DNA from: Eledone cirrhosa
Taxonomy: Eukaryota
Length of the DNA: 64,000 nucleotides
Assembly: GCA_964016885.1 (NCBI GenBank)
Contig: OZ024742.1
Coordinates: 222,642,001 to 222,706,000 of the forward strand
Direction: 5' to 3'
Shown: in pieces, positions 5,755-62,714 of the stretch
Layout: each line of letters starts with the position of its first letter
Numbering within the stretch: position 1 is the first letter of the stretch
Made by a program: the position numbers and the translations under genes
The notes under the pieces: model-generated
Seen by the model: only the letters and a program-made list of their open reading frames with translations
What the model was told of the DNA's origin: nothing
The model's database searches: none

Positions 5755-7380
5755 TATGAAGAAGGTTTCCACTGCCAGGGGAACGACCGCAGAACCTGTC
5801 GGAGAGCGACCAGTATTTGAGGAGTTTGGCCCCCTCAGCCGATGTGCAGCAGAACCTGGGTCAGTCGCAGACTGCACCAGGTTGCGGTTGCAGAAAGATG
5901 TCGATGCAAGTGGCATCCCAGACGAGGGGTTTGCCACCGCGGAACGGGAAGATGGTCATGCTATCTGGCCTTTTGCCGTCCCTCGATCCAGCCCCACCGG
6001 CTCGAGCTGCGAAGGGAAGCCTGCAGCGTCCAAGCCATGCTTAATGACCTTGTTGAGGGCAGTATGGCATGGAATGCGGCCGGCACTGTGGCGACAGGAA
6101 AGCGGGTAGAGGCCGAAAGAGTCCACAGTGGAACCGCAGCGACATTGGTGTGGCTGGCAGATCCGGAGGCCGAGCCTCAGGGAAACACCGATTTGCAGGC
6201 TATGGTTGTCTAGCTGCGTGCCAGTGGAGAAGGAGGGCAGAGCATGGAGCCAGGCACCACTGTGGGGTTTGGAGGCCGCACGAAAACAAGCAAGGCGGTG
6301 CTGGTCGAGCTGGCACGTGAGCCTGTCTGAGGCCAGGCTGCACTGGATGGCATCCCAAGTGCGTTGGGGAGACTTGACGTCAATAGGGGAGAAGGAGGAG
6401 GGACGTCTACAGAGCTAAGTCCCAGCCGGTCCCACGTCTCACAGGCGGCCTCACATTCTCTGAGCACAGAGGGTTCTGTTGTTTTGAAGGACCCTGCTGA
6501 CGAGGACGCGGCACGAGGTTACCAATGAAAGATACGCTGGCAAAGCTAATGAGATCGGGGACCGGAGGCCTAGGCCGCCATACCTGACCGGTAAAGTCGC
6601 CTGTTGCCACCCTATGTCGTCAAACTTGACGTTGCATATCCCTTCGGCTGCTGCTCGGATACAAGTATTGAGGTCAGCGAGGAGAGATGTCTGGGTGTAG
6701 CATGGAGCGCTGCGGAGTGTATAGAGGAGCTTCGGCATGGCGAAGCAGTTTCTCAGCAGAAAGAGAGCTGGGTGGCCGTCAATCAAGCCCAGTCGGCTCG
6801 TGAGAGTCTGGAGCTGTTGAGGCCTGGACCTGATGATGGAGCGGATGGCCAGCGGGGGGATCGGTGACCCGAGGATGAGGACATCCTCTTTGGGGGTCAC
6901 CTGAACCTGGTGGAGAATGGACCGCACATCCAAGACGGAGGCTGCAAAGCTCACAGCATCGAGGCTGATGTTCACCACCTCCGACTTGGCCGGGTTGACC
7001 TGGAGGCCGATTCCCGCCAGGGCAGGAATCACCAATTGAAGGTCTTGGCAGACCATCCGTACGGGCCCGCCCAACGTAGCATCATCCAGATACCAAACGT
7101 TGAGAGGGGTCGTGATACTCCGGGCTATGTGGTCAATACTAAAGGCGAACAGGAGGCGTCCCAAAGGGTCGCCCTGTTGGACCCCAGTAGCTGAGGGTAT
7201 GACTGTATCAGCAGCTAGGAGCATGCTCGGGGCTCCATATGACAGGTAGGCCAGCGGGTAGGCAGAGGGGGCTCGGCTGAGGCAGGCCTCGAGCAGATGA
7301 TCCCGGCGTGAAGAGTTAAAGGCATTCCTCATGTCAAGCTTGACAATGAAGTGCCTGGAGTCCCTGGATGCCGGTACCGA
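5755..7380 (-). mobile_element. CRE-clade non-LTR retrotransposon (RT + zinc finger + restriction-like endonuclease), truncated at both ends and frameshifted
   Basis: RT motifs KLDMRNAFNS, GVQQGDPLG, WYLDD and LPVRYGGLG. Downstream frames give SGAWLHALPS, CRCG..LSC, RPD...GKPLVWDAT and VPLAVET. GC-rich. Confidence 0.85.
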
Positions 7381-7766
7381 TGGGCAGCTGAAGTGTTCAT
7401 GGTTCAAAGACTGTGCATGCTGATGCATTTTGGCACTAGCACTACTATTTTACAGATTGTACTGGATGCATTTTATTTTGACACCAACACTAGAAAGGTT
7501 GTCTTGTGTTATTGACAGAGATAAAGCACCCTCACTTGGCATGTGAGGGAAATTTTAACACCAAAAAATAAATGATAAATATAAAGTGAATTTAAAATTT
7601 TTCTATGTGTGTTTTGACTGGCTAAAATGACTCTTCCACAAAGTAATTGCTTTAGTTTCAAGAAACAACCTCAGATCAAGTCTCTTGCCAGACATGTACA
7701 ATTGCGATAAAAATGACTCTTCTACAACATAATTGCTTTAAATATTTTCAATAAAGTTTTACTCAC

Positions 7767-9660: not shown

Positions 9661-10139
9661 ATCATCATTTTACGTCCACTTTTCCCTGCTTGCAAAGGTG
9701 GGACAGGAACTGATTCTGGCTTGTTTTCTACAGCTGGATGCCCTTCCTAACACCAACCTCATTTACAGTGAGTGCTGGGTGCTCTTTTTCCGTGGCACCT
9801 ACACGACCACTTTGCAGTGGAATGATAGGGACCCCAGTCTCTATCATCTCATTTCTACAGCTGAGTAAACTGGAGCAATGTGAAATAAAGTGTCTTGCTC
9901 AAGGAAACAACACATCACCCGGTCTGAGAATTAAACCGGGTGATGTGTTGTTTCCTTGAGCAACACACTTTATTTCACATTGGGAGAGATTTATTAATTA
10001 TCCCTATATATTTTCGATTCACATCCATCAACTGGTTTTTTTTCCGGGGGAGGGGGGGGAGGGGGGGGGGGGGGGGGGGGGTCTGTCGGAAAGGTGCGAA
10101 ACGTGTCCTCTGCTGTTCGTTGTTTTGAATATTTGACAG

Positions 10140-10220: not shown

Positions 10221-12540
10221 TTGTTATACTTTGGGAGGGTCATGTTGCCAAAAAGAAACACACGCACCAGTTGCTTTCACTTCAATTTATTATAATAAAT
10301 TTATAAATTTCCGGTTGGTTGGTTGGTTGGTTCCACAACCAGATGGTTGTTTATATATTGTCAAAGTTCTTTCGTCACACATTCTGTGACCTCTTCAGTG
10401 ACTGGGGATTCTTTTCTTTGTTTTTGTGCCTCTCCTTTGTTCTGTCCTACGCCATCTTGTTTCTGTGTGTGTGTTGTGTGCTCAGTCCGCGCATGCGCCA
10501 CATCCGGGTGTCTGTGTGTGTTTATATTCGTTTATTTATTTGTTTATTTATATGTTGCTGGTTGGTTGTTTGTTCTATGTGCGTGTGTGTTTTCATTTTG
10601 TCCTTAATTGTAAGTTGTGATGTTGTTGTTCCACTCATGTTTTCTATTTAATTTTGGTTGTAATTCTTTTATGTTTATTGCCTCTGTGATTTGTCTAAAC
10701 ATTGTGTCTTTTCTGTGTGTAGATTCTATTTTTATTTCTATGTTCTCTAATTTACCCTTATGTTCTATTTTAGCATGTTGGTAGAGTACAGATGATTCTT
10801 TACTATCTTGAAGGTCTCGCCAGTGTTCATTTATCCGTTCCCCTACACTACGAGCTGTCTCACCTATGTACACTATATTTTTATCTCTACATTGTCCTTC
10901 AGTACATCTTATGCTATATACTACATTTCTAGTTTTACAGTTAATATGGGGGCTTAATTTACAGGTTATACATTTCTTATCTATACAGGGGGGTCTTTGA
11001 AAAGGGTATGTCTTGCTAATAAGTGTTTTTATGGAGGTACCTGGTCTTTCTACTATCTTAATATTGAGTTTATGTTTATCTAGGGCCCTTCTAAATTTGT
11101 AAGCTAATTCACCTCTAGAGGTTGTATCGATGAACACTACACTCTGGTATTTATTGCTATCATACCATGGGTTTATTCTATTAGCCTTATTCCTAGTTCT
11201 TTCTATTCTATTCCAAAATTTGCTCCTATACAAGGGGCAGGTCCCATTTGTGTCATTATTTACCATTTTTTCCCATTTGGTTCTGGCTCCTCTATACACT
11301 CTGATTTTATCTCTCTGATTGTAACCAGAGAACTGCATACGGTGGATGAAGTGTTGTATGTGTCTCTCTAGTTCTTCTGGGTTGCACATGCGGGACACGT
11401 TTCTCATCACCCGTACCAAATCCGCAATCAGTATGTTGATTTTGGTATGGTCCGAAACAGCTGAGTTTCGGTGGATCAGATATTTGGAAGTCATGGGTTT
11501 GGCATAATGGGAATGGAGGATTTGTCTTTTGTTATTAATGGTATCTAACCAGAGCTCTGTGTCTAGTACAGGTAATCGATGGTTGGGGTGTTTGCTTGGG
11601 TAATCTATAGTAACTCTAATACTCTGGTGGATGGAGTTAGCTATTTGCTGGATGCTTTCCATTGTGTTTTTCTCTAATTCCTGACTGTTCTCTAGTGGGG
11701 GTGTTTTAACTACGATGTTTATATCATCAATGTAGCAGGAGTACACTATCAGGGTTAAGGGGTCTTCTAATTGTTCTTTAAGTTTAAGTTTAAGTCTACT
11801 GTCCCACCATACCATGAATAAGTTAGCTATGTTGCCTGCAATGCTAACACCAATGGCTGCTCCCTCCTCTTGGGCATATGTTTTTCCATTAAATTTGAAC
11901 ATATGTTCCTTAAGGGTTAATTTTATGCTGGCCCCCACCGCATGTGCAATCATTTTCTTCAGTTCATCGTGGTTTTCGGGGGTCCGTATGGCTCTGGTCC
12001 ACCCGTTCCATCTATCTGGGTGGGTTTCTTGGCCATTGAGGTAATGGTAGGTGGTCTGCCTCTTGCTGGTCTTGTAGGGCACAGGTTGCTAAGGTCATAT
12101 GTGTCTAGATAATTATTACTATAGGTAAGTTTAAGTAGGAGTCCCAGTTCACTGGTATCAATCCCATGGAACTCAACATTGCTCTCACTGATCATTTCTA
12201 CGCATTTCTCCACAGCAAAATCCACGTCAATAGATGGATACAGGGACACAACATCCATACTACCTATTATGCAGTTTGTTAGGTCCCTAGATCGGTTACT
12301 CTCGCCGATTCTGCTGAGGAGGTCCTCCGTGCTGTCACATACATCTGGGGACATTTCAATGATGGGGCGTATGATCAGGGAGAGGAAGTAGGACAGTCTG
12401 TAGTTACTAGCAATGTTAGCTCCACAGACTGGCCGTGTTGGTTGTCCCGTGACAAGGACACTGCCCGTTTTATGGTCTTTTCGAAGCCCATACAACGCTG
12501 GCACGTCATTGTTCCAGGCCTGGAAATCCAGAAACGAAAT
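10221..12540 (-). mobile_element. Penelope-like element (RT + Cys linker + GIY-YIG endonuclease), 5'-truncated, one frameshift near 12035, flanked by (TA)n
   Basis: ORFs 11959-12504 and 10604-12082 contain LYGLRKDHK, RPV, SMDVVSLYPSI, GAAIG, YIDD, CIDKKCITC and VVYSIRC...YIGET...R..EH...EA. The 3' UTR/pLTR carries an HHR. Confidence 0.93.
10360..10402 (-). ncRNA. Minimal type I hammerhead ribozyme in the PLE 3' pLTR (family A)
   Basis: Minus strand reads GUCA CUGAAGA G GUCACA gaaug UGUGAC GAAA GAAC UU UGAC: helix I GUCA/UGAC, conserved core, helix II hairpin and vestigial helix III. Confidence 0.75.
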
Positions 12541-12776
12541 ATATATATATATTATCTAATAATATATATATATATATATATATAATATATATATATAATA
12601 TATATAATAATATATATATTATATATTATATATATATATATATATTATATTATTGTTTACAAACACACCGAGCATTATAATAAATGTTCGGTGAATACAT
12701 ACGTACATATATATATATAAACGGAAAAAATGAAACGAAATTTCATTTCTCACTCTTAGTACGGCTGTTACTTAAA

Positions 12777-13278
12777 TATAAGTATGTATACGTACATACA
12801 TATATGTATACAGACGGACAGTAGTATGTATATATATATACATACATGCACACACATATATATATATATATATGTACGTATGGATTCACTGAACATTTAT
12901 TATAATGCTCGGCGTGTTTGTAAACAAACATCCCGAATTAAGCCGTACAGTGTCTAGCAACCATCGTTGCTCATTTGTTCAACACTGACAAAGGAATGCT
13001 GTACTAGTTTCAAGCTTATTAGCTATTGTCAGCAACGTATACATTCCTGCCTTGAAACTAGTACAGCGTTCCTTTGTCAGTGTTGAACAAATGAGCAACG
13101 ATGGTTGCTAGACACTGTACGGCTTAATTCGGGATGTTTGTTTACAAACACACCGAGCATTATAATAAATGTTCGGTGAATCGATACGTACATATATATA
13201 TGTGTGCATGTATGTATATATATATACATACTACTGTACGTCTGTATACATATATGTATGTACGTATACATACTTATA
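12777..13278. repeat. Foldback palindrome family B (~235-bp arms, spacer 13015-13050) with a decayed central HHR
   Basis: Near-perfect inverted arms. The minus strand reads gttg CTGACAA tagct aata agctt GAAA CTAG TA cagc. Confidence 0.9.
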
Positions 13279-13332
13279 TATATATATATACAATATATTA
13301 ATAAATGGAAACTATATTTATAAAACCATATT

Positions 13333-13398
13333 TATTTTATTATATATATTTCAAGGGCAACCAAGGCAAATTATGGTGCACTTTCATCAGATAAAATA
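13333..13398 (-). ncRNA. Minimal hammerhead ribozyme with intact core (family C, left arm)
   Basis: UAUUUUAU CUGAUGA [AAGUGCACCA...UGGUUGCCCUU] GAA AUAUAUAU A | AUAAAAUA. Confidence 0.78.
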
Positions 13399-13571
13399 CA
13401 GATTTGTTTTAGAAATAAATATTGACATACCCGGAAAATAGACAACCTTAACGGTTGGAGCTTCCTGGATAGTGGAGATAGTACATTTATATCTCCACTA
13501 TCCAGGAAGCTCCAACCGTTGAGGTTGGCTTTTTTCTGGGTATGTCAATATTTATTTCTAAAACAAATCTG

Positions 13572-13637
13572 TATTTTATCTGATGAAAGTGCACCATAAT
13601 TTGCCTTGGTTGCCCTTGAAATATGTATAATAAAATA
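13572..13637 (+). ncRNA. Minimal hammerhead ribozyme with intact core (family C, right arm)
   Basis: CTGATGA at 13580-13586, GAAA at 13618-13621, helix III ATATGTAT, helix I TATTTTAT/ATAAAATA. Confidence 0.78.
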
Positions 13638-14346
13638 AATATGGTTTTATAAATATAGTTTCCATTTATTAATATATTGTGTATTTACTCCACTAACTGT
13701 TGAGTGCTTTATATCAGTTATAAAAATGTTTAAGCTAGTTAAATCCCAACAAATTAAATATAACCTCTGCATATATATATATCAGGTGCAGGCAACTACA
13801 CTGCACAACTACACAGTCCTGGGTTCAGTCTTGCTGTGTTGCAGTCTTGCAAGTGTTGTCTACTATAACCTTGGGTTGACCAATGCCTGATGATTGAAAT
13901 TTGGTAGATGGAAATTACAGAAGCCTGTCATCATGTGCATGTGTGCATGTGTGTCTATGTTTATTTGTGTCTGTGCCTGTATTTATGTCCAATAACTTAT
14001 CGGATTAACAAACCAAGTGATCAATATAGATTTGAAAAAAATAATTGCAGGTGTTGATATGATCAATTAAATCAATACGGTGCCCTAGCATGACCGCAGT
14101 TTAACAACTAAAACTAATAAAGGTATATAGACAGAAATAGATAGATAGCTGTTAATATTCTTTTTACTGTTTTCAGTCACCAGGCAGTGGCTCTGATGGG
14201 GCACTGCCTTGATTTAGTCAATTATATCGATTCTCATTATTTATTCCTTTCAAGTCTGCTCTAAGTTTTATCTATCTTCTTTTATTGAACTGATAAGTTA
14301 CAGAATATAATCAGACACAAACTTAGATGCAGGGATGGACACACAT

Positions 14347-14382: not shown

Positions 14383-15252
14383 CATCATCATCACCGTTTT
14401 ACGTCCGTTCTTCCATGCTAGCATGGGTTAGACGGGTTGTCCTGTTGAGGGCAGTGTCTGGTCGGCTGACCATGCCTTGCTCATACAGGAACTGATTTTG
14501 GCTTGATTTCTACAGCTGGATGCCCTTCCTAACACCAACCTCATTTACAGTGAGTGCTGGGTGCTTTTTTCCATGGCGCCTACACGTCCACTTTACAGTG
14601 TGGGCTGGGTGCTTTTTTTGCCGTGGCACCTCCACGACCACTTTGCAGTGGGAGGGTGTGGGGGCATATTGTCTATATGCTTCAGCTTGTACCCATGGGA
14701 GGTCGGGTACTCTGTATTACTGCGTGACGCCAGAGGTCACAGTCGTGTGTTCATCGCCTTTGAGAGGTGTAATTGGGTAAGTTCGGCTTTTATCACCTCA
14801 TCCCAGGTTTTCTTGGGTCTCCCCACTCCGCGGTTTCCATTGACTTCTAGTGCTCTGCACCTTTTTATGCAGCTGTCATCCTTCATACGCATCACATGTC
14901 CATACCAACGCAACCGCCTCTCCTGCACACAGCATTTGATTCCTCTTATGCTCAGTCTCTCTCTCAATTGATTTATGCTTTGCCGTTCGCGTATATTACT
15001 ATTACACATCCATCGGAACATGCAGGCTTTGTTTCTTTCTAATCTACGTAAGTCTTCCACCTTCAGCGCCCAGGTCTCACTACCATGTAACATTGCTGTT
15101 CGGATACACGCATCATACAGTCTGCCTTTCATTTTGAGGGAGAAGCCTTTTGCAGCTAGCAGTGGCAGTAGTTCCCTGAACTTCTTCCATCCCGTTCTTA
15201 CCCTAGTTATTGTACTTTCTGAACACCCACCTCCGCTACTAATTCGGTCACC
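14382..15252 (-). mobile_element. RTE LINE 3' fragment with 3' UTR and (CAT)n tail
   Basis: ORF 14737-15273 contains MLHGSETWAL, ERRLRWYGHVMR and GRPKKTW. Confidence 0.88.
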
Positions 15253-15272
15253 TATATATATATATTCGGTCA

Positions 15273-15321
<49 letters not shown>

Positions 15322-16899: not shown

Positions 16900-19800
16900 A
16901 TCATCATCATCATCATAATTGTTTAACGTCCACCTTCCACGCTTGCATGGGTTTGGATGGGAATTTTCCCACTTGAGGCAAGATTGGTTGTCTTGCTCGT
17001 ATAGGACTTTCTGGCAGGTTTTCTACGGCTGGATGCCCTTCCTAACACCAAGCACGTTTACAGTGTGGACTGGGAGGTTTTTACCGTGTTACCTACACGG
17101 CCACATTACAGCGTGGACTGTGTGTTTTTTTGTCGTGACACCTACACGACCTCATTTATTTCGGACTGGATGTTGTGGTACCAACATAACTTTACATCGA
17201 AAGGGGTAGTGTGGATGGGGTGGGGGTAGTGGGATGGGGGTGTATTTTTGGTTAGGAGGTGCCTACTGACTGTAGGTTTCGCTTTGTACTTAGGCAAGGC
17301 GGGTCTCCTCTATTACTGTGTAGCGCCAAAGATCTCGGTCCAGTGACATTGTCTTGGAGAGTTGTAAGTGTGTGAGGTCGGAATTTATCAAGTCGTCCCA
17401 GGTTTTTCTGGGTCTGCCTATCTCCGTGGCTACCGTCTATTTTTATCGCCCTGTACTTTTTTATACAGCTGTCGTCTTTCATGCGCATCACGTGACCATA
17501 CCAACGTAGTCTTCTCTCGAATAAACAACATCTGATTCCTCTTATTCCTAATTTCTCCCTTAGTTCATTTATGCTTTGCCGTTCACGTATATTACTATTA
17601 CACATCCAGCGGAGCATGCAAGCTTCGTTCCTCTCTAGTTTGCGTATATCCTCTGCACACAATGCCCAGGTCTCACTGCCATGCAACATTGCTGTTTGTA
17701 TGCAGGCATCATACAGCCTGCCTTTCATTTTTAGAGAGAACCCTTTAGCGGCCAATAGTGGTATAAGCTCTCTGAACTTTTTCCATCCCGTTCTGACTCT
17801 AGCTACTGTACTTTCAGAGCAACCTCCAACACTGCTGATTTTGTCACCCAGGTAACGGAAGGCGTCCACTATAGAACCATCTGTGCAATGGAATGAGCTA
17901 GTATTCTGTGGGCACTTGCTGCTACTTATTGCACCTGAGCACCGGCCACATATAAAATCTATATTCTTAGTTAGCTTACCTGTGATCCCACTACATCTTT
18001 TATGCACCCATACTTTGCATTTGGGACATAAAACTCCTTTCCTACACACTGAGCATGGCCATTTCCCAGATTACAAACTAGAACTTTAGTCTTAGACAGG
18101 TTAATTTTAAGGCCTTTTGATTCTAGGCCATGATTCCATGTTTGGAATTTCTTCTCGAGTTCAGCCATTGATTCAGCTGTGAGTGTTGGATCATCTGTGT
18201 ATAGGAGTTCCCATGGGCAGCCGGTCTTAAACTCCTCTGTTATAGCCTGAATGGCAATAATAAATAGTAGGGGGCTAAGGACGGAGCCCTGATGAACACC
18301 AACTTTTACACTAAACTCTTCACTATATTCGTTGTTAATTCTAACCTTGCTGACTGTTTCTTTATACATGGCTTGTATAGCTCTCACAAGCCATTCATCA
18401 ACACCTAGTTTTCTAAGAGCCCACCAGATAATGGAGCGGGGTACTCTATCAAAGGCTTTCTCCAAGTCAACAAAAACTAAGTATAGGGGTTTACTTTTAG
18501 CTAGGTACTTCTCCTGTAGTTGTCGTACAATGAAAAGAGCGTCTGTTGTACTTTTACCTGACACAAACCCGAACTGCATTTCATCTAGATCAATTAGCTC
18601 TCTGATTAGTTGCGCTATTACTTTTTCTGTGACCTTCATGACCTGGTCAATTAATTTAATGCCTCTATAGTTTCCCCTATCTAGGGCATCTCCTTTACCC
18701 TTGTAGCAGTTAATGATGATGATGCTACGCCAGTCCTTCGGAACGACCCCATTCTGTATGACTTGGTTTACTATCTGGGTGACCATAGTGTGTCCCACCG
18801 TTCCAGATGCTTTCAGCATTTCAGCAACTATTTCCAAAGGCCCAGCCGCCTTGCCTGTCTTCATATCTTTGATCACCTTACTTATTATACTACCTTCAAC
18901 TTGCACTGCTGGTCTCTCTATTGGATCGATGTGGGGGAGACTGTCTTTCTCCCAATTATTCTCCTCATTTAGTAGCCTTTCGTAGTGACACTTCCAAGCT
19001 ACCTTTTTATCAGCGTCAGTGATGGCAAGTACACCATCATCATTAAGGACACACTTCTCCCCGACAATATCACGGTTTTTCTTGACACATTACCTAGCAA
19101 TCCTGAACACCTCACGTTTTTTGTGCTCGCGTTGTAGAACATGCTTGAACTTTCTTTCCTCTGCTTCCCTTCTTGCGAAGTACACTTGTCTCCTAGCTTC
19201 CCTCCTGGCTACTTGATAGTCTTCTCTACTTACCCCATCCTGACATGCTTTCCAAGCCTGCTTTTTGGCCTTACTGTTCCACCACCAACTTACTCTCCTC
19301 CGGCCTATAGGTCTGCTCCAGCCACAGATTTCATCTGTCGCCTTCAGTAGGTTAGCTTTCAGGAATTCCCACTGTTCCTCTCTATTGTACGACTCTAATT
19401 GCTCTTCCTTACTATCAAAAGCATCAAGTAATATGCTTTTAAATTTATAACTGGCTGTGAGGTCCTTTAGCTTCGATATTTTTCTCCTGGGGATAGTCCT
19501 CTTCTGTTGTCGAGTACGTCTCGTCCTGACTATGAGGTCGCTAATTATGAGTCTATGTTGAGAGGTGCATTCTTCATGGGGGGGGGGGGGGGGGGGTTAG
19601 TGTTTACAACAGACACTCTGTCACGTCTTCTGGTAAGGATATAATCTACCTGGCTGGTGTGTTCCCCTGATCTATAGGTGATCAAGTGATTGTCTCATTT
19701 TTTGAAGTTAGTGTTACAGATAGTTAGGTTATTTGCGTCACAGAATTCCAGGATTCTGGAGCCTTCCTCATTTCTAGTACCAAACCCATAGCCTCCATGG

Positions 19801-20365
19801 ATTCCGTCATAGCCGTCACAATGTTGTCCAACGTGACCATTTAGGTCGCCAGCGATAACTATGTAGTCACTGTCGGATATTTGGGAGGTAGTGAGCATTA
19901 ACGTCTCATAGAATCTGTCTTTTATAACGCCAGGCAGTCCGGATTGTGGTGCATATGCAGATATTATTGTCACAGTAGTTCTATTGAGGACAAGTCTTAT
20001 TCTGTCGTTCACTCTATTTACGTCTATTATCTTATCTGCTACCATGATTCCTACTCCACCCAGCCCATTGTCATTTCCCACCCAGAAAAGCTTATAGCAT
20101 CGTTCTTTACCCACAATGAATCTAGCAGACCCGCCCCTCCACCTGGTCTCTTGAATACAGCAAACATCGACCTCCTTACATTCAAGCATTTCTACAACCT
20201 CGTTAGAGCGACCTTTTAAGGTGCCTACATTCATGGTACCAACTCTAAAGTTTTGGATTGCGTTTGGATTGCGTTTGGTGGGGCGCAGGGGGGGTATGTT
20301 AGCCATCCGCGGCCAAAATAAAGAGGAGGAGTCCTTGCATTCTCGTCCGGCAGCATGAGGTGAAT
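16900..20365 (-). mobile_element. Near full-length RTE LINE (APE endonuclease + RT), frameshifted
   Basis: APE motifs TMNVGTL, IQETRW, SAYAPQ and GDLNGH (19695-20306). RT motifs FVDLEKAFDRV, GVHQGSVLSP and YTDD (17971-18906). C-terminal ORF 17252-18049; (GAT)n tail. Confidence 0.93.
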
Positions 20366-21342
20366 GAGGTGAATTTTTGTTATTATTAAGTTGGTGTTTG
20401 GAATATAAATATTCTTATGATGGAAGGTTTTAGTTAAATGTAAACACTAAAACAAAGCTTTATATCATAGAACCAGGAGCACATTTTAGCATGTTGGTAT
20501 CAAAACTGTTAAACTGTATCAAAACAAATCAAACACAGGATGAAAACATCAGTAAGACTACCTTCTTTTATGTATTAATGAACATTTCAAAAAAATTAAT
20601 CCTGTTTTCAGCTTGATAAAATCAGGGTAACATAGGGTTGTTAATAATGGTTACTGTCTGTCCCAAGCCAGAAAGCTCATCAAGCCTGAACTCATCTCGA
20701 TTTCATTGACGTTAAGAGACTGAGAATACAAGACTCACTGTTTGATGGTATGCTAGTCCATCGCATGGTTAACCCCTAGCTTCTGGTGGTACTCATTTTC
20801 AGCTGAGTTAACAGGAGTGAAATGAAATAAAGTATTTTGCTCAAGAACACAACCTGCTGCCCAGTCCAAGAATCAAATCAACAACTTAACACTTAAACCA
20901 CTAGGCCATGCACCTTTACAATAAAGAGTTGTGATAGTAACTAATATCTAATTCAACATCATTAGAAAGTTATAGGGTTTAATAAAATAAAGGAAGTGAC
21001 TTTTGTATATTTTATAAATAGTTAGGCCAAAAGGTGGGGACTGTACCTATTCCTTTTGCAAGCTCTCAGAGACCAATAAAATCAATATGGTTAAGACAAA
21101 TGTAGGCAAGGTGATAATTCTTGAGGGCCAATGTTCTGGGTGAAAAGACCAAATGATGATGATGATAATAAAAAAGACAGTATGGTTATAGAGTTCACTT
21201 TAGAACCATGTGGTTTCGGGATTAGTCCCACTGAACGGTACCTTTGGCCAAGTGTCTTCTACTATAGCCTTGAATCGACCAATACCTTGTGAGTGGAATT
21301 CGGTAGGCAGAAAATGTGAGGAAGGTTATCATATACATACAT

Positions 21343-21828
21343 ATATATATATGAATGTATATATAGTGTATTTTGCAATACACTGTATGCTTAATTAAAA
21401 GCATTTTGAAGACCTTACGCTATTGTTTTAGAGTAGTGACAATCTCACTTACTTTAAATTTTCAGCAAACAGGGGGAGATAAAGCTGACAGAGTTCTATT
21501 TGGTACTTCACTATTTCAGAGCACCAATTCTAATTTTCAATTTCTGCTTGACCGGAAACCGCTCTGTATAATCAGTTCCTGATTAATACTAGAATTCTAT
21601 AAGAATCAAACATTCATGATTTTCAGCAAACAGGTGGAGTACTTAGCTTTCATAAGTACCAAATCGTACGAAACAGAGCTCTGTCAGCTTTATCTCCCCC
21701 TGTTTGCTGAAAATTAAAGTAAGTGAGACTGTCACTACTCTAAAACAATAGCGTAAGGTCTTCAAAATGCTTTTAATTAAGCATACAGTGTATTGCAAAA
21801 TACACTATATATACATTCATATATATAT
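21343..21828. repeat. Foldback palindrome family D (~160-bp arms) with an HHR relic at 21645-21689
   Basis: Inverted arms 21343-21505 and 21667-21828. The plus strand reads agct TTCATAA gtac caaatc gtac GAA ACAGAGCTCTGT C agct. Confidence 0.88.
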
Positions 21829-21909
21829 CGGTATTTCAGAGCACCAATTCTAATATATATATATATATTCAAAATATTAACAAAAATAGAACTTCTTGTG
21901 ATCAAATAT

Positions 21910-21973
21910 ATTTTATTATACATATTTCAGAGGTACTAAGCTAACTTCAACAGTACGTCCTCATCAGATAAAA
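21910..21973 (-). ncRNA. Solo minimal hammerhead ribozyme with intact core
   Basis: UUUUAU CUGAUGA GGACGUACU..loop..AGUACCUCU GAA AUAUGUAU A | AUAAAA. Confidence 0.75.
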
Positions 21974-22495
21974 CAAGATGATGCATGACATACCCTGACA
22001 TAGTAGATGGTTAAGATCCAGTCAAGGATCCATATATATATCCAGTCATGGATCTATATATATATATATATAGGGGGGGGGGGGGTCCTTGTTACCAGGC
22101 AAAACAAATGTTAACACTTTAGCATTCACATTATTCTATAAATACTATTATATTTTCATGGTAAAGACTTTACTTCACATAATATCGAATCTATGAGATT
22201 TTGAAAGTATTTATTTTGAGAAAGACAATACCTTAACATCAGTTTGAGTGACCAGTTACAGTCAGTTTCAAAGGAAAGAAGTAGAGAATTCTGGCCGGTT
22301 TTGGCTGGTTTGAAAAATAGTTAATAGGGTTGATATAATCAAATAAAAAAAAAAATTGGAGCAACCACATCATGGCCACAATCTAATGATGGAAACCATT
22401 AAAAAATAAAAGAATAATGAAGATGATAATGGTGCTACCAGCGACAACAATGATGATGGCAATAATGATGATGATATGCTATATATTTTCCTTAA

Positions 22496-47473: not shown

Positions 47474-49520
47474 CTACAAGAATTTAAAACAATATAATTG
47501 AAATAAAATGTTTTGTAATTTTTAAAACATGCACAGGCAGTCATCTTAAGAACAATGTATTACAACTAATCATTATTTTTATCAGTAGAGCGTCAGACAC
47601 CATGTTTTGCAGCATAGTTATGGACCTTCACATTCTGAGTTCAAATCCTGCTGAGGTTAGCTTTGCCTTTCATCCTTACGGGGTCGATAAAATAAAGCAC
47701 CAGTAATGCACAGGGGTAATTGTTGGCCTTGTGCCAAAAGTAGAAACAATTATTTTTACATCCCCAATACCATGCTGGTATGAGTTGAACAGGATGGTTT
47801 GATACAGCTGAATGCTCTTAGCACCGACCCTTTTAGTCACCTCTTATACACTGAGTATAACTGATCCAGGTAATGTTCTTTTTGTTAGTCTGGTCTTATT
47901 TTAACTTTTATAGTTCAATAGCTTAACATTTTTAACCTTTTTGCATTTACATTACTCTATATTTACTATTATATTTTCATGGTACCCCACATAATATCAA
48001 ATCTATGAGATTTTGATACTATTTATTTGAGAACAATACCTTAACATCTGTATAAGTGGCCGGTTACAGCTGGTTTAAACAGAAAGAGGTGAGAGAATTC
48101 TGGCCAGATACAGCTGGTTTAAATGCTAAAGGGTTGATGTAATTGTTTGGTTCATGATTCCAATACGTAGTGAATATTATATAATTATGGTGTGGACTAT
48201 AATTTAATGTTTTCTCTTTCTCTCTTTTCAGACACAGGTGTGCTTATTCTAAAAAAAAAAAAGGAGGGGGGGATACACACAGCATAACAGTAATAAAAAA
48301 TAAAAAGTGGGTGAGGACTTCTGGTTTTGACAATGAGTGTTCTAGTTGTTCATCCAACAGAACAGCCTATTTGTTAAATTAACATGTAAGTGGCAGAGTA
48401 TTATACAGATGAAATAAAAAGGAAAAAAAAAAAAAAATTTACAGCTCACACTTATGCAGGTTTAGCTTGGGTGTTTTAATAATAGGGAGCTTAGTCTTAT
48501 CATAAACAGCAGCATGAAATGAAGTGTCTTGCTCAAGAACACAATACACAACCAATTCAGAAATTTAATCCATGACCTTATGATTATTACTCCAACACTA
48601 ACCTCTGGCCATAGAACCTCATGCCCAGTATTTGACTGATATTTTATTTCATTAAACCTTTAGCATTTAAACTGGCCGTATCTGGCCAGAATTCTTTCAC
48701 CTCTTTCTTTTCAAATTGGCAGTAACCAGGTGCTCATACTGATGTTAAAGTATTGTTCTCTAAATAAATAATATCAAAATCTCATAGATCCAATATTACG
48801 TGAGATAATTATGTGAAGTAAAGCCTTTACCGTGAAAATGAAATAGTATATATAGAGTAATGTAAATGCTAATGCTAAAGGGGTTAACTCCAGAAGGACA
48901 AAAGGCAAAGTTGACTTCAGTGAGATTTAAACTTAGGTGAAGAGCCATAACTAAATACCACAAAACATTTTGTCTGACACCCTATTGATTCTGCTAATCC
49001 ACAACCCTCGTGTCACAATAACTAATTAAAAAAGTAAATAGATTTCTGGTTTCAACAAGTGTTCCAATTGTTCTTTCAATGAAACAGCATATTTGTTAAA
49101 TTAATGTGTAAGTGGCTGAGTATCCCATAGATACATAATTCTTAGTTTCTAGCTACCCAGCTTCACTTACAAGACATGAGCTGACCCAAGGCTATGGTAA
49201 AAAAACACACTTGAAGTGCCACACAGTAGGACTGAACCGAAAACCTTACGATTGTAAAGCAAACTTAACTATTCAGCCATGCAATCATAAGATAATATTA
49301 CCATAAATAATGGTTTCTAATTTAGGCACAAAGCCAGCAATTTGGTGGAAGGGAAAGTCAAATCGACAACCATCCACAAAGTTGAAAGGCAAAGTTGACC
49401 TCAGCAGGATTTGAATTCAAATGCTACAAAGCATTTTATATAATTAATAAGAGTTATAATTATATAATGAGAAATAAATGCCCGAATAGTTCCAAATATT
49501 GTAAATTTTTTTTAACAAAA

Positions 49521-49552
<32 letters not shown>

Positions 49553-49564
49553 AATGTATGTATA

Positions 49565-50820
49565 AAATCAAAAGGCCTTAAAATTAACCTGGCTAAGACT
49601 AAAGTTCTAGTTTGTAGGAAAGAAAATAAGGCGGCGGTCCCTTCCGGGAAATGGCCATGCTCAGTGTGTAGGAAAGGCGTAGGTAGAAACTCCATTTTAT
49701 GTCCCAAATGCAAAGTATGGGTGCATAAAAGATGTAGTGGGATCACAGGTAAGTTAACTAAGAACATAGATTTTACATGTGGCCGGTGCTCTGGTGCAAT
49801 AAGTAGCAGCAAGTGCCCACAGAATACTAGCTCTTTCAATTGCGCAGATGGTTCTATAGAAATAGTGGACAGCTTCCGTTACCTGGGTGACAAAATCAGC
49901 AGTGGGGGAGGGTGCTCTGAAAGTACTGTAGCTAGAGTCAGAACTGGTAGGAAAAAGTTCAGAGAGCTTATACCACTATTAGCCACTAAAGGGTTCTCCC
50001 TAAAAATGAAAGGCAGGTTGCATGATGCCTGCATACGAACAACAATGTTGCATGGCAGTGAGACCTGGGCATTGTGTGCAGAGGATATACGCAGACTAGA
50101 GAGGAACGAAGCTTGCATGCTCTGCTGGATGTGTAATAGTAATATACGTGAACGGCAAAGCATAAACGAACTAAGGAAAAAATTAGAAATAAGAGGGATC
50201 AGATGTTGTTTACTCGAGAGAAGGCTACATTGGTATGGTCACGTGATGCGCATGAAAGACGACAGCTGTATAACAAAGTGCAGGGCAATAAAGATAGACG
50301 GTAGCCACGGAGTAGACAGACCCAGAAAAACCTGGGACGAGCTGATAAATTCCGACCTCACACACTTACACCTCTCCAAGACAATGTCACTGGACCGAGA
50401 CCTTTGGCGGTACTCAGTAATAGAGAAGACCCGCCTTACCTAAATACATAGTAAAACCTACTAGTCAGTAGGCATCTCTAACAAAATACACCCCCGTCCC
50501 ACCCACACCGCCCCTTTCAATGTAAAGTTATGTTGGTGCCACAACATCCAGGCCGAAACAAATGAGATCGTGTAGGTGTCACGACAAAAAAAACACACAG
50601 TCCACGCTGTAATGTGGCCGTGTAGGTAACACAGTAAAAACCTCCCAGCCCCACACTGTAAATGTGGTTGGTGTTAGGAAGGGCATCCAGCTGTAGAAAA
50701 CCCGCCAGACAGTCCTATGCGAGCAATGACAACCACTCTTGCCTCAAGTGGGAAAACTCCCGTCCAAACCCATGCAAGCGTGGAACATGGACGTAAAATG
50801 ATGATGATGATGATGATGAT
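49565..50820 (+). mobile_element. RTE LINE 3' part, same subfamily as 16900-20365
   Basis: ORF 49664-50443 is nearly identical to 17252-18049; shared 3' UTR; (GAT)n tail. Confidence 0.9.
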
Positions 50821-60675: not shown

Positions 60676-60918
60676 TAAAATATCGTTTTTATCTTTAATA
60701 ATTTCCAGTAAATAGTATAAACTATAAGATTTCTCTTATGAAAACCATTAATACATATTTATGTTTATGTGTATGAAGTGCATGCATGTAATACTCAATG
60801 CATACATTTCATACACACAAACATAAATATGTATTAATGGTTTTCATAAGAGAAACCCTATAGTTTATGTTGATTACTGGCACGTGGAAATTACTAAAGA
60901 TAAAAAATGATATTTTAG
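60676..60918. repeat. Foldback palindrome F (~110-bp arms)
   Basis: tttctcttatgaaaaccattaatacatatttatgttt and its reverse complement flank a centre near 60792. Confidence 0.85.
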
Positions 60919-62288: not shown

Positions 62289-62374
62289 ATACTTTGGGAG
62301 GGTCATGTTGCCAACAAATTCAGAAACGAAATATATGTATATATATATATGTATATATTTATATATATATATAT

Positions 62375-62630
62375 GCAGAGGTTATATTTAATTTGTTGGG
62401 TATTCAACAAGCTTAAACATTTTTATAACTGATATAAAGCACTCAACAGTTAGTGGAGTAAATACGAAATATATTAATAAATGGAAACTATATTTATAAA
62501 ACCATATTTATTTTATTATATATATTTCAAGGGCAACCAAGGCAAATAATTTGCCTTGGTTGCCCTTGAAATATATATAATAAAATAAATATGGTTTTAT
62601 AAATATAGTTTCCATTTATTAATATATTGT
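62375..62630. repeat. Shorter family-C foldback, centred inside HHR helix II (~62547), with the same one-sided tail
   Basis: Matches 13290-13372 and 13596-13770. Confidence 0.88.
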
Positions 62631-62714
62631 ATATATATATATATATATAAGAATAACATTAAGAAAGAAAGATGATGTGTTTACATATAGCATTTATTCA
62701 TTATAATTATTTCT

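Follow-up and report, generated by a model that had tools for sequence, protein, structure and literature searches.

The window analysed here comprises 64,000 nt of the Eledone cirrhosa contig OZ024742.1; its long open reading frames are, within this window, retroelement pieces or low-complexity sequence. A palindromic insertion occupies positions 13290-13771, inside the TA end of another repeat at 12653-13282 (Table 1). Its arms (13290-13480 and 13490-13680) are mutually reverse-complementary with five mismatches (left/right positions 13345/13625, 13433/13537, 13439/13531, 13442/13528 and 13449/13521), and each strand carries one hammerhead motif. An earlier, sequence-only reading of the locus had described just such a palindrome with few differences between its arms, and the predicted cuts fall where it placed them. 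The insertion is asymmetric, with a 91-nt extension of the right arm to 13771 and a central loop that belongs to the left arm; the loop nucleotides are element sequence, matching what lies upstream in two long copies of the family (L031 and L034). Since the arms are not identical in sequence and do not match at either end, the palindrome is no assembly fold-back. The earlier description of the insertion as young holds among repeats generally, but not within the family: over 27 pairs the arms diverge by 0-11%, three pairs not at all, and the 2.6% of the present pair is the median value.

Table 1. Features of the palindromic insertion and its flanks, in window coordinates.
Feature	Position	Strand	Remarks
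(TA)n target, left side	13275..13289		From sequence; TA terminus of the adjacent repeat
Left arm, 5'-truncated pLTR copy with short 3' end	13290..13490	-	Contains loop-forming element nt 13481-13490
Type I hammerhead motif, minus strand	13333..13398	-	Core 13390-13384; predicted cut 13341/13340; helix III insert AUAUAUAU
Right arm, 5'-truncated pLTR copy	13490..13680	+	Overlaps left arm by 1 nt at 13490
5'-end hot spot of sister copies; inferred RNA start or strong RT stop	13496..13506	+	14/28 arms
Predicted splice donor GTATGT	13540..13545	+	43 nt past inferred start; GGTAYGT in 55/78 arms
Type I hammerhead motif, plus strand	13572..13637	+	Helix III insert AUAUGUAU; predicted cut 13629/13630
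Parts of the plus-strand hammerhead	helix I 13572-13579/13630-13637; core 13580-13586; helix II 13587-13617; GAAA 13618-13621	+	
One-sided tail, from short to long 3' end	13681..13771	+	From sister-copy comparison
Predicted splice acceptor TATATCAG inside tail	13710..13717	+	ATATCAG in 29/39 long arms
(TA)n target, right side	13771..13782		From sequence

A search of the animal's own 3.0-Gb genome with the right arm returned 2,319 candidates, 40 of which were scored, at 96-100% identity. The common sequence stops at AACCTCTGCA followed by (TA)n, the equivalent of 13771 here. Upstream of it, long sister copies carry an AT-rich spacer of ∼1.3 kb and then a frame with RT and GIY-YIG domains, pieces of which precede the same pLTR in L032-L035 and other copies but are missing from this truncated one; in tandem copies (L040 and L042) the same 3' end is followed ∼50 nt on by the start codon of the frame. 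A single ORF with RT followed by GIY-YIG is thus tied to this end sequence, and the pLTRs occur in direct and inverted order with a tail on one side, as in EN+ PLEs. The frame pieces contain the motifs RLRWR, SDKT, YRDD, CNCRNKSNC, CSLCVEE and INLRNNLFSSCKH, and the GIY-YIG core holds a single C.

An RWK-like motif (RW[KR]), DKT, a CxCX5C linker, and CxxC and CxH around E and N are listed as features of the Hydra clade (Craig et al. 2021, PMC8557442; e.g. Hydra-1_Obim); all were found in the family, and a CCHH motif was not. A C-terminal GIY-YIG, a (TA)n target and a pLTR hammerhead are likewise shared with that clade, with TA runs flanking both ends of the insertion here and bordering the 3' end in most sister copies. 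By eye, the family protein resembles Hydra-1_Obim and Hydra-2_Amil in the supplement of that paper. Unlike typical members, the family has a unit of ∼3.8 kb (assembled from pieces of L041) with a 1.3-kb 3' spacer, although the length of <3 kb is given there as a tendency rather than a rule; it has tens of thousands of copies including sister subfamilies, and in hammerhead and pLTR sequence it departs from the motif given for Hydra-1_Obim in the available part of the supplement. On motifs and by-eye likeness, we place the family among the Hydra-clade Penelope-like elements. No stop-free full-length frame was present in 12 long loci, the longest family piece being 370 aa; a homologue search with the family protein returned two unnamed proteins, and a search of the open-access literature returned no paper on this Hydra family.

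Both arms have CUGAUGA, GAAA, an 8-bp helix I and AUA at the cut, with UH, three helices in type I order and covariation in the family, and we classify both motifs as predicted type I hammerhead ribozymes. A strict type I scan of the window gave three motifs of this kind, against none in 30 approximate dinucleotide-shuffled versions of unchecked length. Helix I consists exclusively of A-U pairs, helix II comprises three 3-bp pieces, 9 bp in all (-5.9 kcal/mol), with a closing A-U instead of G-C pair, and helix III has 3 bp and a 2-nt loop and is self-complementary. The G10.1-C11.1 pair and stable helix III associated with monomer activity are lacking, and the self-dimer reaches just -2.2/-3.2 kcal/mol. 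The ribozyme is a dimer-type hammerhead without a same-strand partner at the locus, so that the description "two fully intact hammerheads" was right for the cores, GAAA, helix I and AUA and overstated as to "fully". An Rfam scan gave no hammerhead family among 53 matches at E≤1; the matches were hairpin-like miRNA models alone, scoring below their own thresholds.

The closest known counterparts are the minimal, palindromic-helix-III hammerheads of metazoan PLEs (Cervera and de la Pena 2014, PMC4209133), which are likewise of type I, with a long helix II and a tiny self-complementary helix III. In that study of the class a single motif proved inactive and dimers weakly active, and opposite-strand pairs 100-700 bp apart were noted in PLEs. 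The motifs here differ from those described in the available text of that paper in that the basal pair of helix II is A-U, not G10.1-C11.1, A9 is followed by no additional nucleotide, helix I has 8 bp of A-U, and a conserved 1x1 mismatch lies past the third pair of helix II.

Among 78 intact cores, position 7 is free (T49, G12, A12, C5), and the helix III insert is TATATA or TATGTA and nothing else. Across 20 variants, 95% of cells were paired and five of the nine helix II pairs were compensated; the covariation control disregards relatedness, and two of its five measures did not rise above shuffles (60/500 and 389/500). These patterns indicate that the ribozyme is selected in the element's lineage. 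Selection at this locus itself does not follow from two intact cores, which divergence alone would leave in about half of cases (0.54) and which 20 of 25 evaluable pairs have, in a sample picked via the ribozyme pattern or similarity. The predicted cut site is spanned by 94 of 100 arms, in line with uncut RNA as the template, and none of the other six starts cleanly there, leaving no clear copy that begins at the cut. The hammerhead would be kept for the element's own life cycle, where cutting would require either another copy on the same strand or the assistance of a protein; in the present palindrome it most probably rides along as a passenger.

A 22-nt pattern of the ribozyme core has 8,871 exact copies in the genome (control, 0), and a 27-mer 3' of the cut, common to sister subfamilies, has 39,878. 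Among the first 100 core matches listed, pairs within 400 nt were head-to-head in 12 cases, tail-to-tail in one and direct in none, from which ∼1,000 head-to-head palindromes are expected among all cores. The family samples, taken for the most part from the initial 66 Mb of a single contig, point to a strict rule at the ends: one arm stops at the short 3' end (∼13680-13687) and the other at the long end (∼13771). This holds for 39 of 50 inverted pairs and, in another sample that has one locus in common with the first, for 15 of 16 (p=1.3e-4). Spacing between cores ranges from 63 to 293 nt, and junction positions vary by locus. The window holds another palindrome of the family (62374-62637), with the long end left and the short end right, in which both arms are truncated inside helix II (at the equivalent of ∼13596) and lack CUGAUGA. 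The head-to-head layout is likely the family's routine insertion product, with no built-in switch. Inverted pLTRs, one-sided tails, opposite-strand paired hammerheads and siRNAs from Penelope inverted repeats are each already described in the published texts consulted.

We consider it highly probable that the palindrome arose when two 5'-truncated pLTR ends of this high-copy Hydra-clade PLE were inserted head to head into a TA microsatellite, likely in one event in which both cut DNA ends primed RT on the RNA of one source element. A common source for the two arms follows from the rare letters they share: non-majority letters common to both arms of a pair occupy 102 of 3,921 sites (2.6%), against 0.35% between loci, and a variant letter present in both arms here occurs at just 21 places genome-wide. 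The element's endonuclease would cut (TA)n; one cut end would prime at the short site (∼13680) and the other at the long site (∼13771), at both of which TA-like RNA stretches could pair with the (TA)n primer; and both cDNAs would extend to about the RNA 5' end (∼13497) and be joined there with an overlap of 1 nt. At this locus the two 5' ends, at 13490 and 10 nt beyond it, are found a little upstream of the sister-copy hot spot.

A comparable reaction has been described in vitro for the Poseidon PLE (PAc; Frangieh et al. 2024, PMC11167929), in which two internal RT starts bound the tail, both strands are cut and extended, and no ends fall at the ribozyme cut site, the hammerhead being protein-assisted and dispensable. 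The starts lie inside the ORF there and upstream of the start codon here; and according to the available text the Poseidon priming site is not homologous to the cut DNA, whereas both sites here are TA-like and presumably homologous to the target. Inverted 5'-truncated pLTRs of Pen2a_Av and D. virilis Penelope are also head-to-head, with a short junction overlap and a single-ended tail (PMC3846280, PMC8557442, PMC2377424). They differ, in the parts of those sources available, in having a frame between the arms, a tail of 30-40 nt rather than 91, and a readable target-site duplication, which (TA)n obscures here.

The second arm could instead have arisen by fold-back, that is by self-priming of one antisense strand of the same element, with the endonuclease trimming the tail off one end. 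Fold-back has been proposed from palindromes at inverted junctions (PMC3846280), a tail via EN resolution has been proposed as well (PMC8557442), and copying of one arm from the other would account for the shared rare variants. In a mixed sample of 36 short/long pairs, the geometry expected of this route appears in those with 5' ends equal within 3 nt (eight pairs) or with the long arm reaching further (four). At the present locus, though, the arm that owns the loop has no tail and the tail sits on the other arm, which would call for an additional trimming step, as would the eight pairs in which the short arm reaches further 5'. In 12 others the long arm is tail-only and the pair is without any overlap, an inversion without duplication that is impossible by fold-back and favours two-ended priming (four pairs were undetermined). 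Priming from both cut ends at two start sites is therefore the probable route in our judgement, and fold-back with trimming an unlikely one that deserves to be taken seriously.

It is very improbable that the short palindrome moves by itself as a non-autonomous unit, in the manner of a retrozyme or MITE, and is copied whole. Short solo pLTR pieces do prevail in the family, just two of 28 sampled arms extending >90 nt upstream, and animal retrozymes are traced back to pLTRs in a preprint (10.64898/2026.07.22.740005). The non-LTR retrozymes (same preprint; PMC7229834) are, like the palindrome, non-coding, pLTR-derived and equipped with a type I hammerhead; according to the available text, however, they are head-to-tail tandems in which two same-strand hammerheads release a circle, which a head-to-head palindrome cannot do, and the absence of direct pairs among the 100 matches listed gives no such tandem. 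Junctions and core spacings are specific to each locus, and the present junction recurs in no other of the top matches listed.

Where the element's RNA begins is suggested by the arms themselves, which look like run-off copies of an RNA leader. Half of 28 family arms at ≥90% identity start at the hot spot, which lies at the foot of a predicted hairpin (∼13497-13545) and could alternatively be an RT stop at that hairpin. A lesser cluster of 5' ends falls at the equivalent of 13570-13572, the first base of helix I (5/28; L048, L054, L056, L081 and L083), some of them perhaps subfamily boundaries. The donor-like motif, 43 nt past 13497, recurs across subfamilies and could alternatively owe its conservation to the hairpin or to a role in the promoter; together with the acceptor-like motif in the tail it would enclose the ribozyme in a predicted intron of 178 nt. 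In D. virilis Penelope, too, the promoter is internal, and an intron lies 46 bp past the start (PMC2377424).

We can thus suggest, tentatively and as a rather unlikely model, that the hammerhead and the short priming site lie within a 5'-UTR intron (13540-13717) of an RNA starting at ∼13497, with splicing choosing between message and transposition template. The stumps would then be twin-primed leader run-offs, about a thousand outward-firing double promoters rather than self-silenced hairpins. Among the aligned loci no family match ended at the donor, as a spliced genomic copy would. In sequencing runs X1, X4, X5 and X15 (X4 of unknown kind) the signal is that of the repeat family, no read crosses the locus, and none of the joints listed fits the predicted intron, an outcome that speaks neither for nor against the model. 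A search of the open-access literature returned no report of a hammerhead inside a PLE intron.

The sequence-only reading had further proposed that in a read-through transcript the arms sequester the ribozyme in a duplex, giving a self-silenced ribozyme and a substrate for editing or dicing. Sequestration as such is borne out by folding: read-through RNA of either strand folds as one duplex (-304.6 and -290.8 kcal/mol), with a helix I probability of 0.0. Self-silencing as a special device is not. The layout is routine, intact paired cores are common, and a dimer-type ribozyme with no same-strand partner leaves little to silence; moreover, if the RNA starts near the centre of the palindrome, as seems likely, transcripts from the element's own start would hold a single arm and no antisense arm. 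Host read-through, if any, would yield a 191-bp duplex that could be edited or diced as any inverted repeat.

A real function, in which such a host read-through duplex shuts off the ribozyme and its editing or dicing has a regulatory effect, is in our view highly unlikely. Folding does predict a highly stable duplex in which the hammerhead fold is lost, and Penelope siRNAs corresponding to inverted regions have been published (PMC3681739), a precedent for the Dicer outcome. However, about 1,000 equivalent palindromes are expected and nothing is distinctive here, the arm divergence being at the median; helix I forms with a probability of just 0.01-0.14 in the predicted fold of a single arm, and monomers of this hammerhead class proved inactive in vitro (PMC4209133). 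Rare substitutions in 103 arms show no excess of A>G over T>C (17 vs 23, p=0.75), and thus no sign of edited RNA as a template.

The locus itself is ordinary retroelement debris. Its value lies in the family, the thousands of copies of which place the two 3' ends and the likely RNA start with single-base precision. The tail-only inversions bear on the choice between priming and fold-back, which the PLE literature cited here leaves open in its available text, and about a thousand near-perfect inverted repeats of 100-300 bp are a plausible bulk source of dsRNA in this animal. The 91-nt tail, the strict rule of one short and one long end, and the predicted intron around the ribozyme are modest leads; if the intron and twin-priming reading were true, the origin of inverted PLE ends and the role of the ribozyme would become testable in one abundant family.

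Two short hypervariable spots (∼13694-13698 and 13725-13728), possibly hairpin loops, interrupt tails that are otherwise 96-97% identical. The neighbouring repeat at 12653-13282 is a nested inverted repeat of an unrelated family (1,489 candidates) with a minimal hammerhead on the minus strand near 13040-12990; its CUGACAA, where four of five sister loci have CUGACGA, suggests that the core is dead. At 10604-12555 (minus strand) lies a broken PLE frame of another clade, with RT, a CX4CxxC linker, a two-cysteine GIY-YIG core and a weak RVT_1 match, which by motif appears Neptune/Nematis-like. An inverted repeat of a related family (21322-22000) has one complete hammerhead (minus 21967, cut 21917) with the helix III/I sequence and the helix II layout of 3 bp plus a C-C mismatch in common with the present motifs, the stem letters being different. 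Fragments of other non-LTR retrotransposon frames lie at 6451-7449, 14737-15273, 17252-20414 and 49505-50443, and further near-perfect hairpins with sub-threshold miRNA-model matches at 9877-9981 and 60742-60843.
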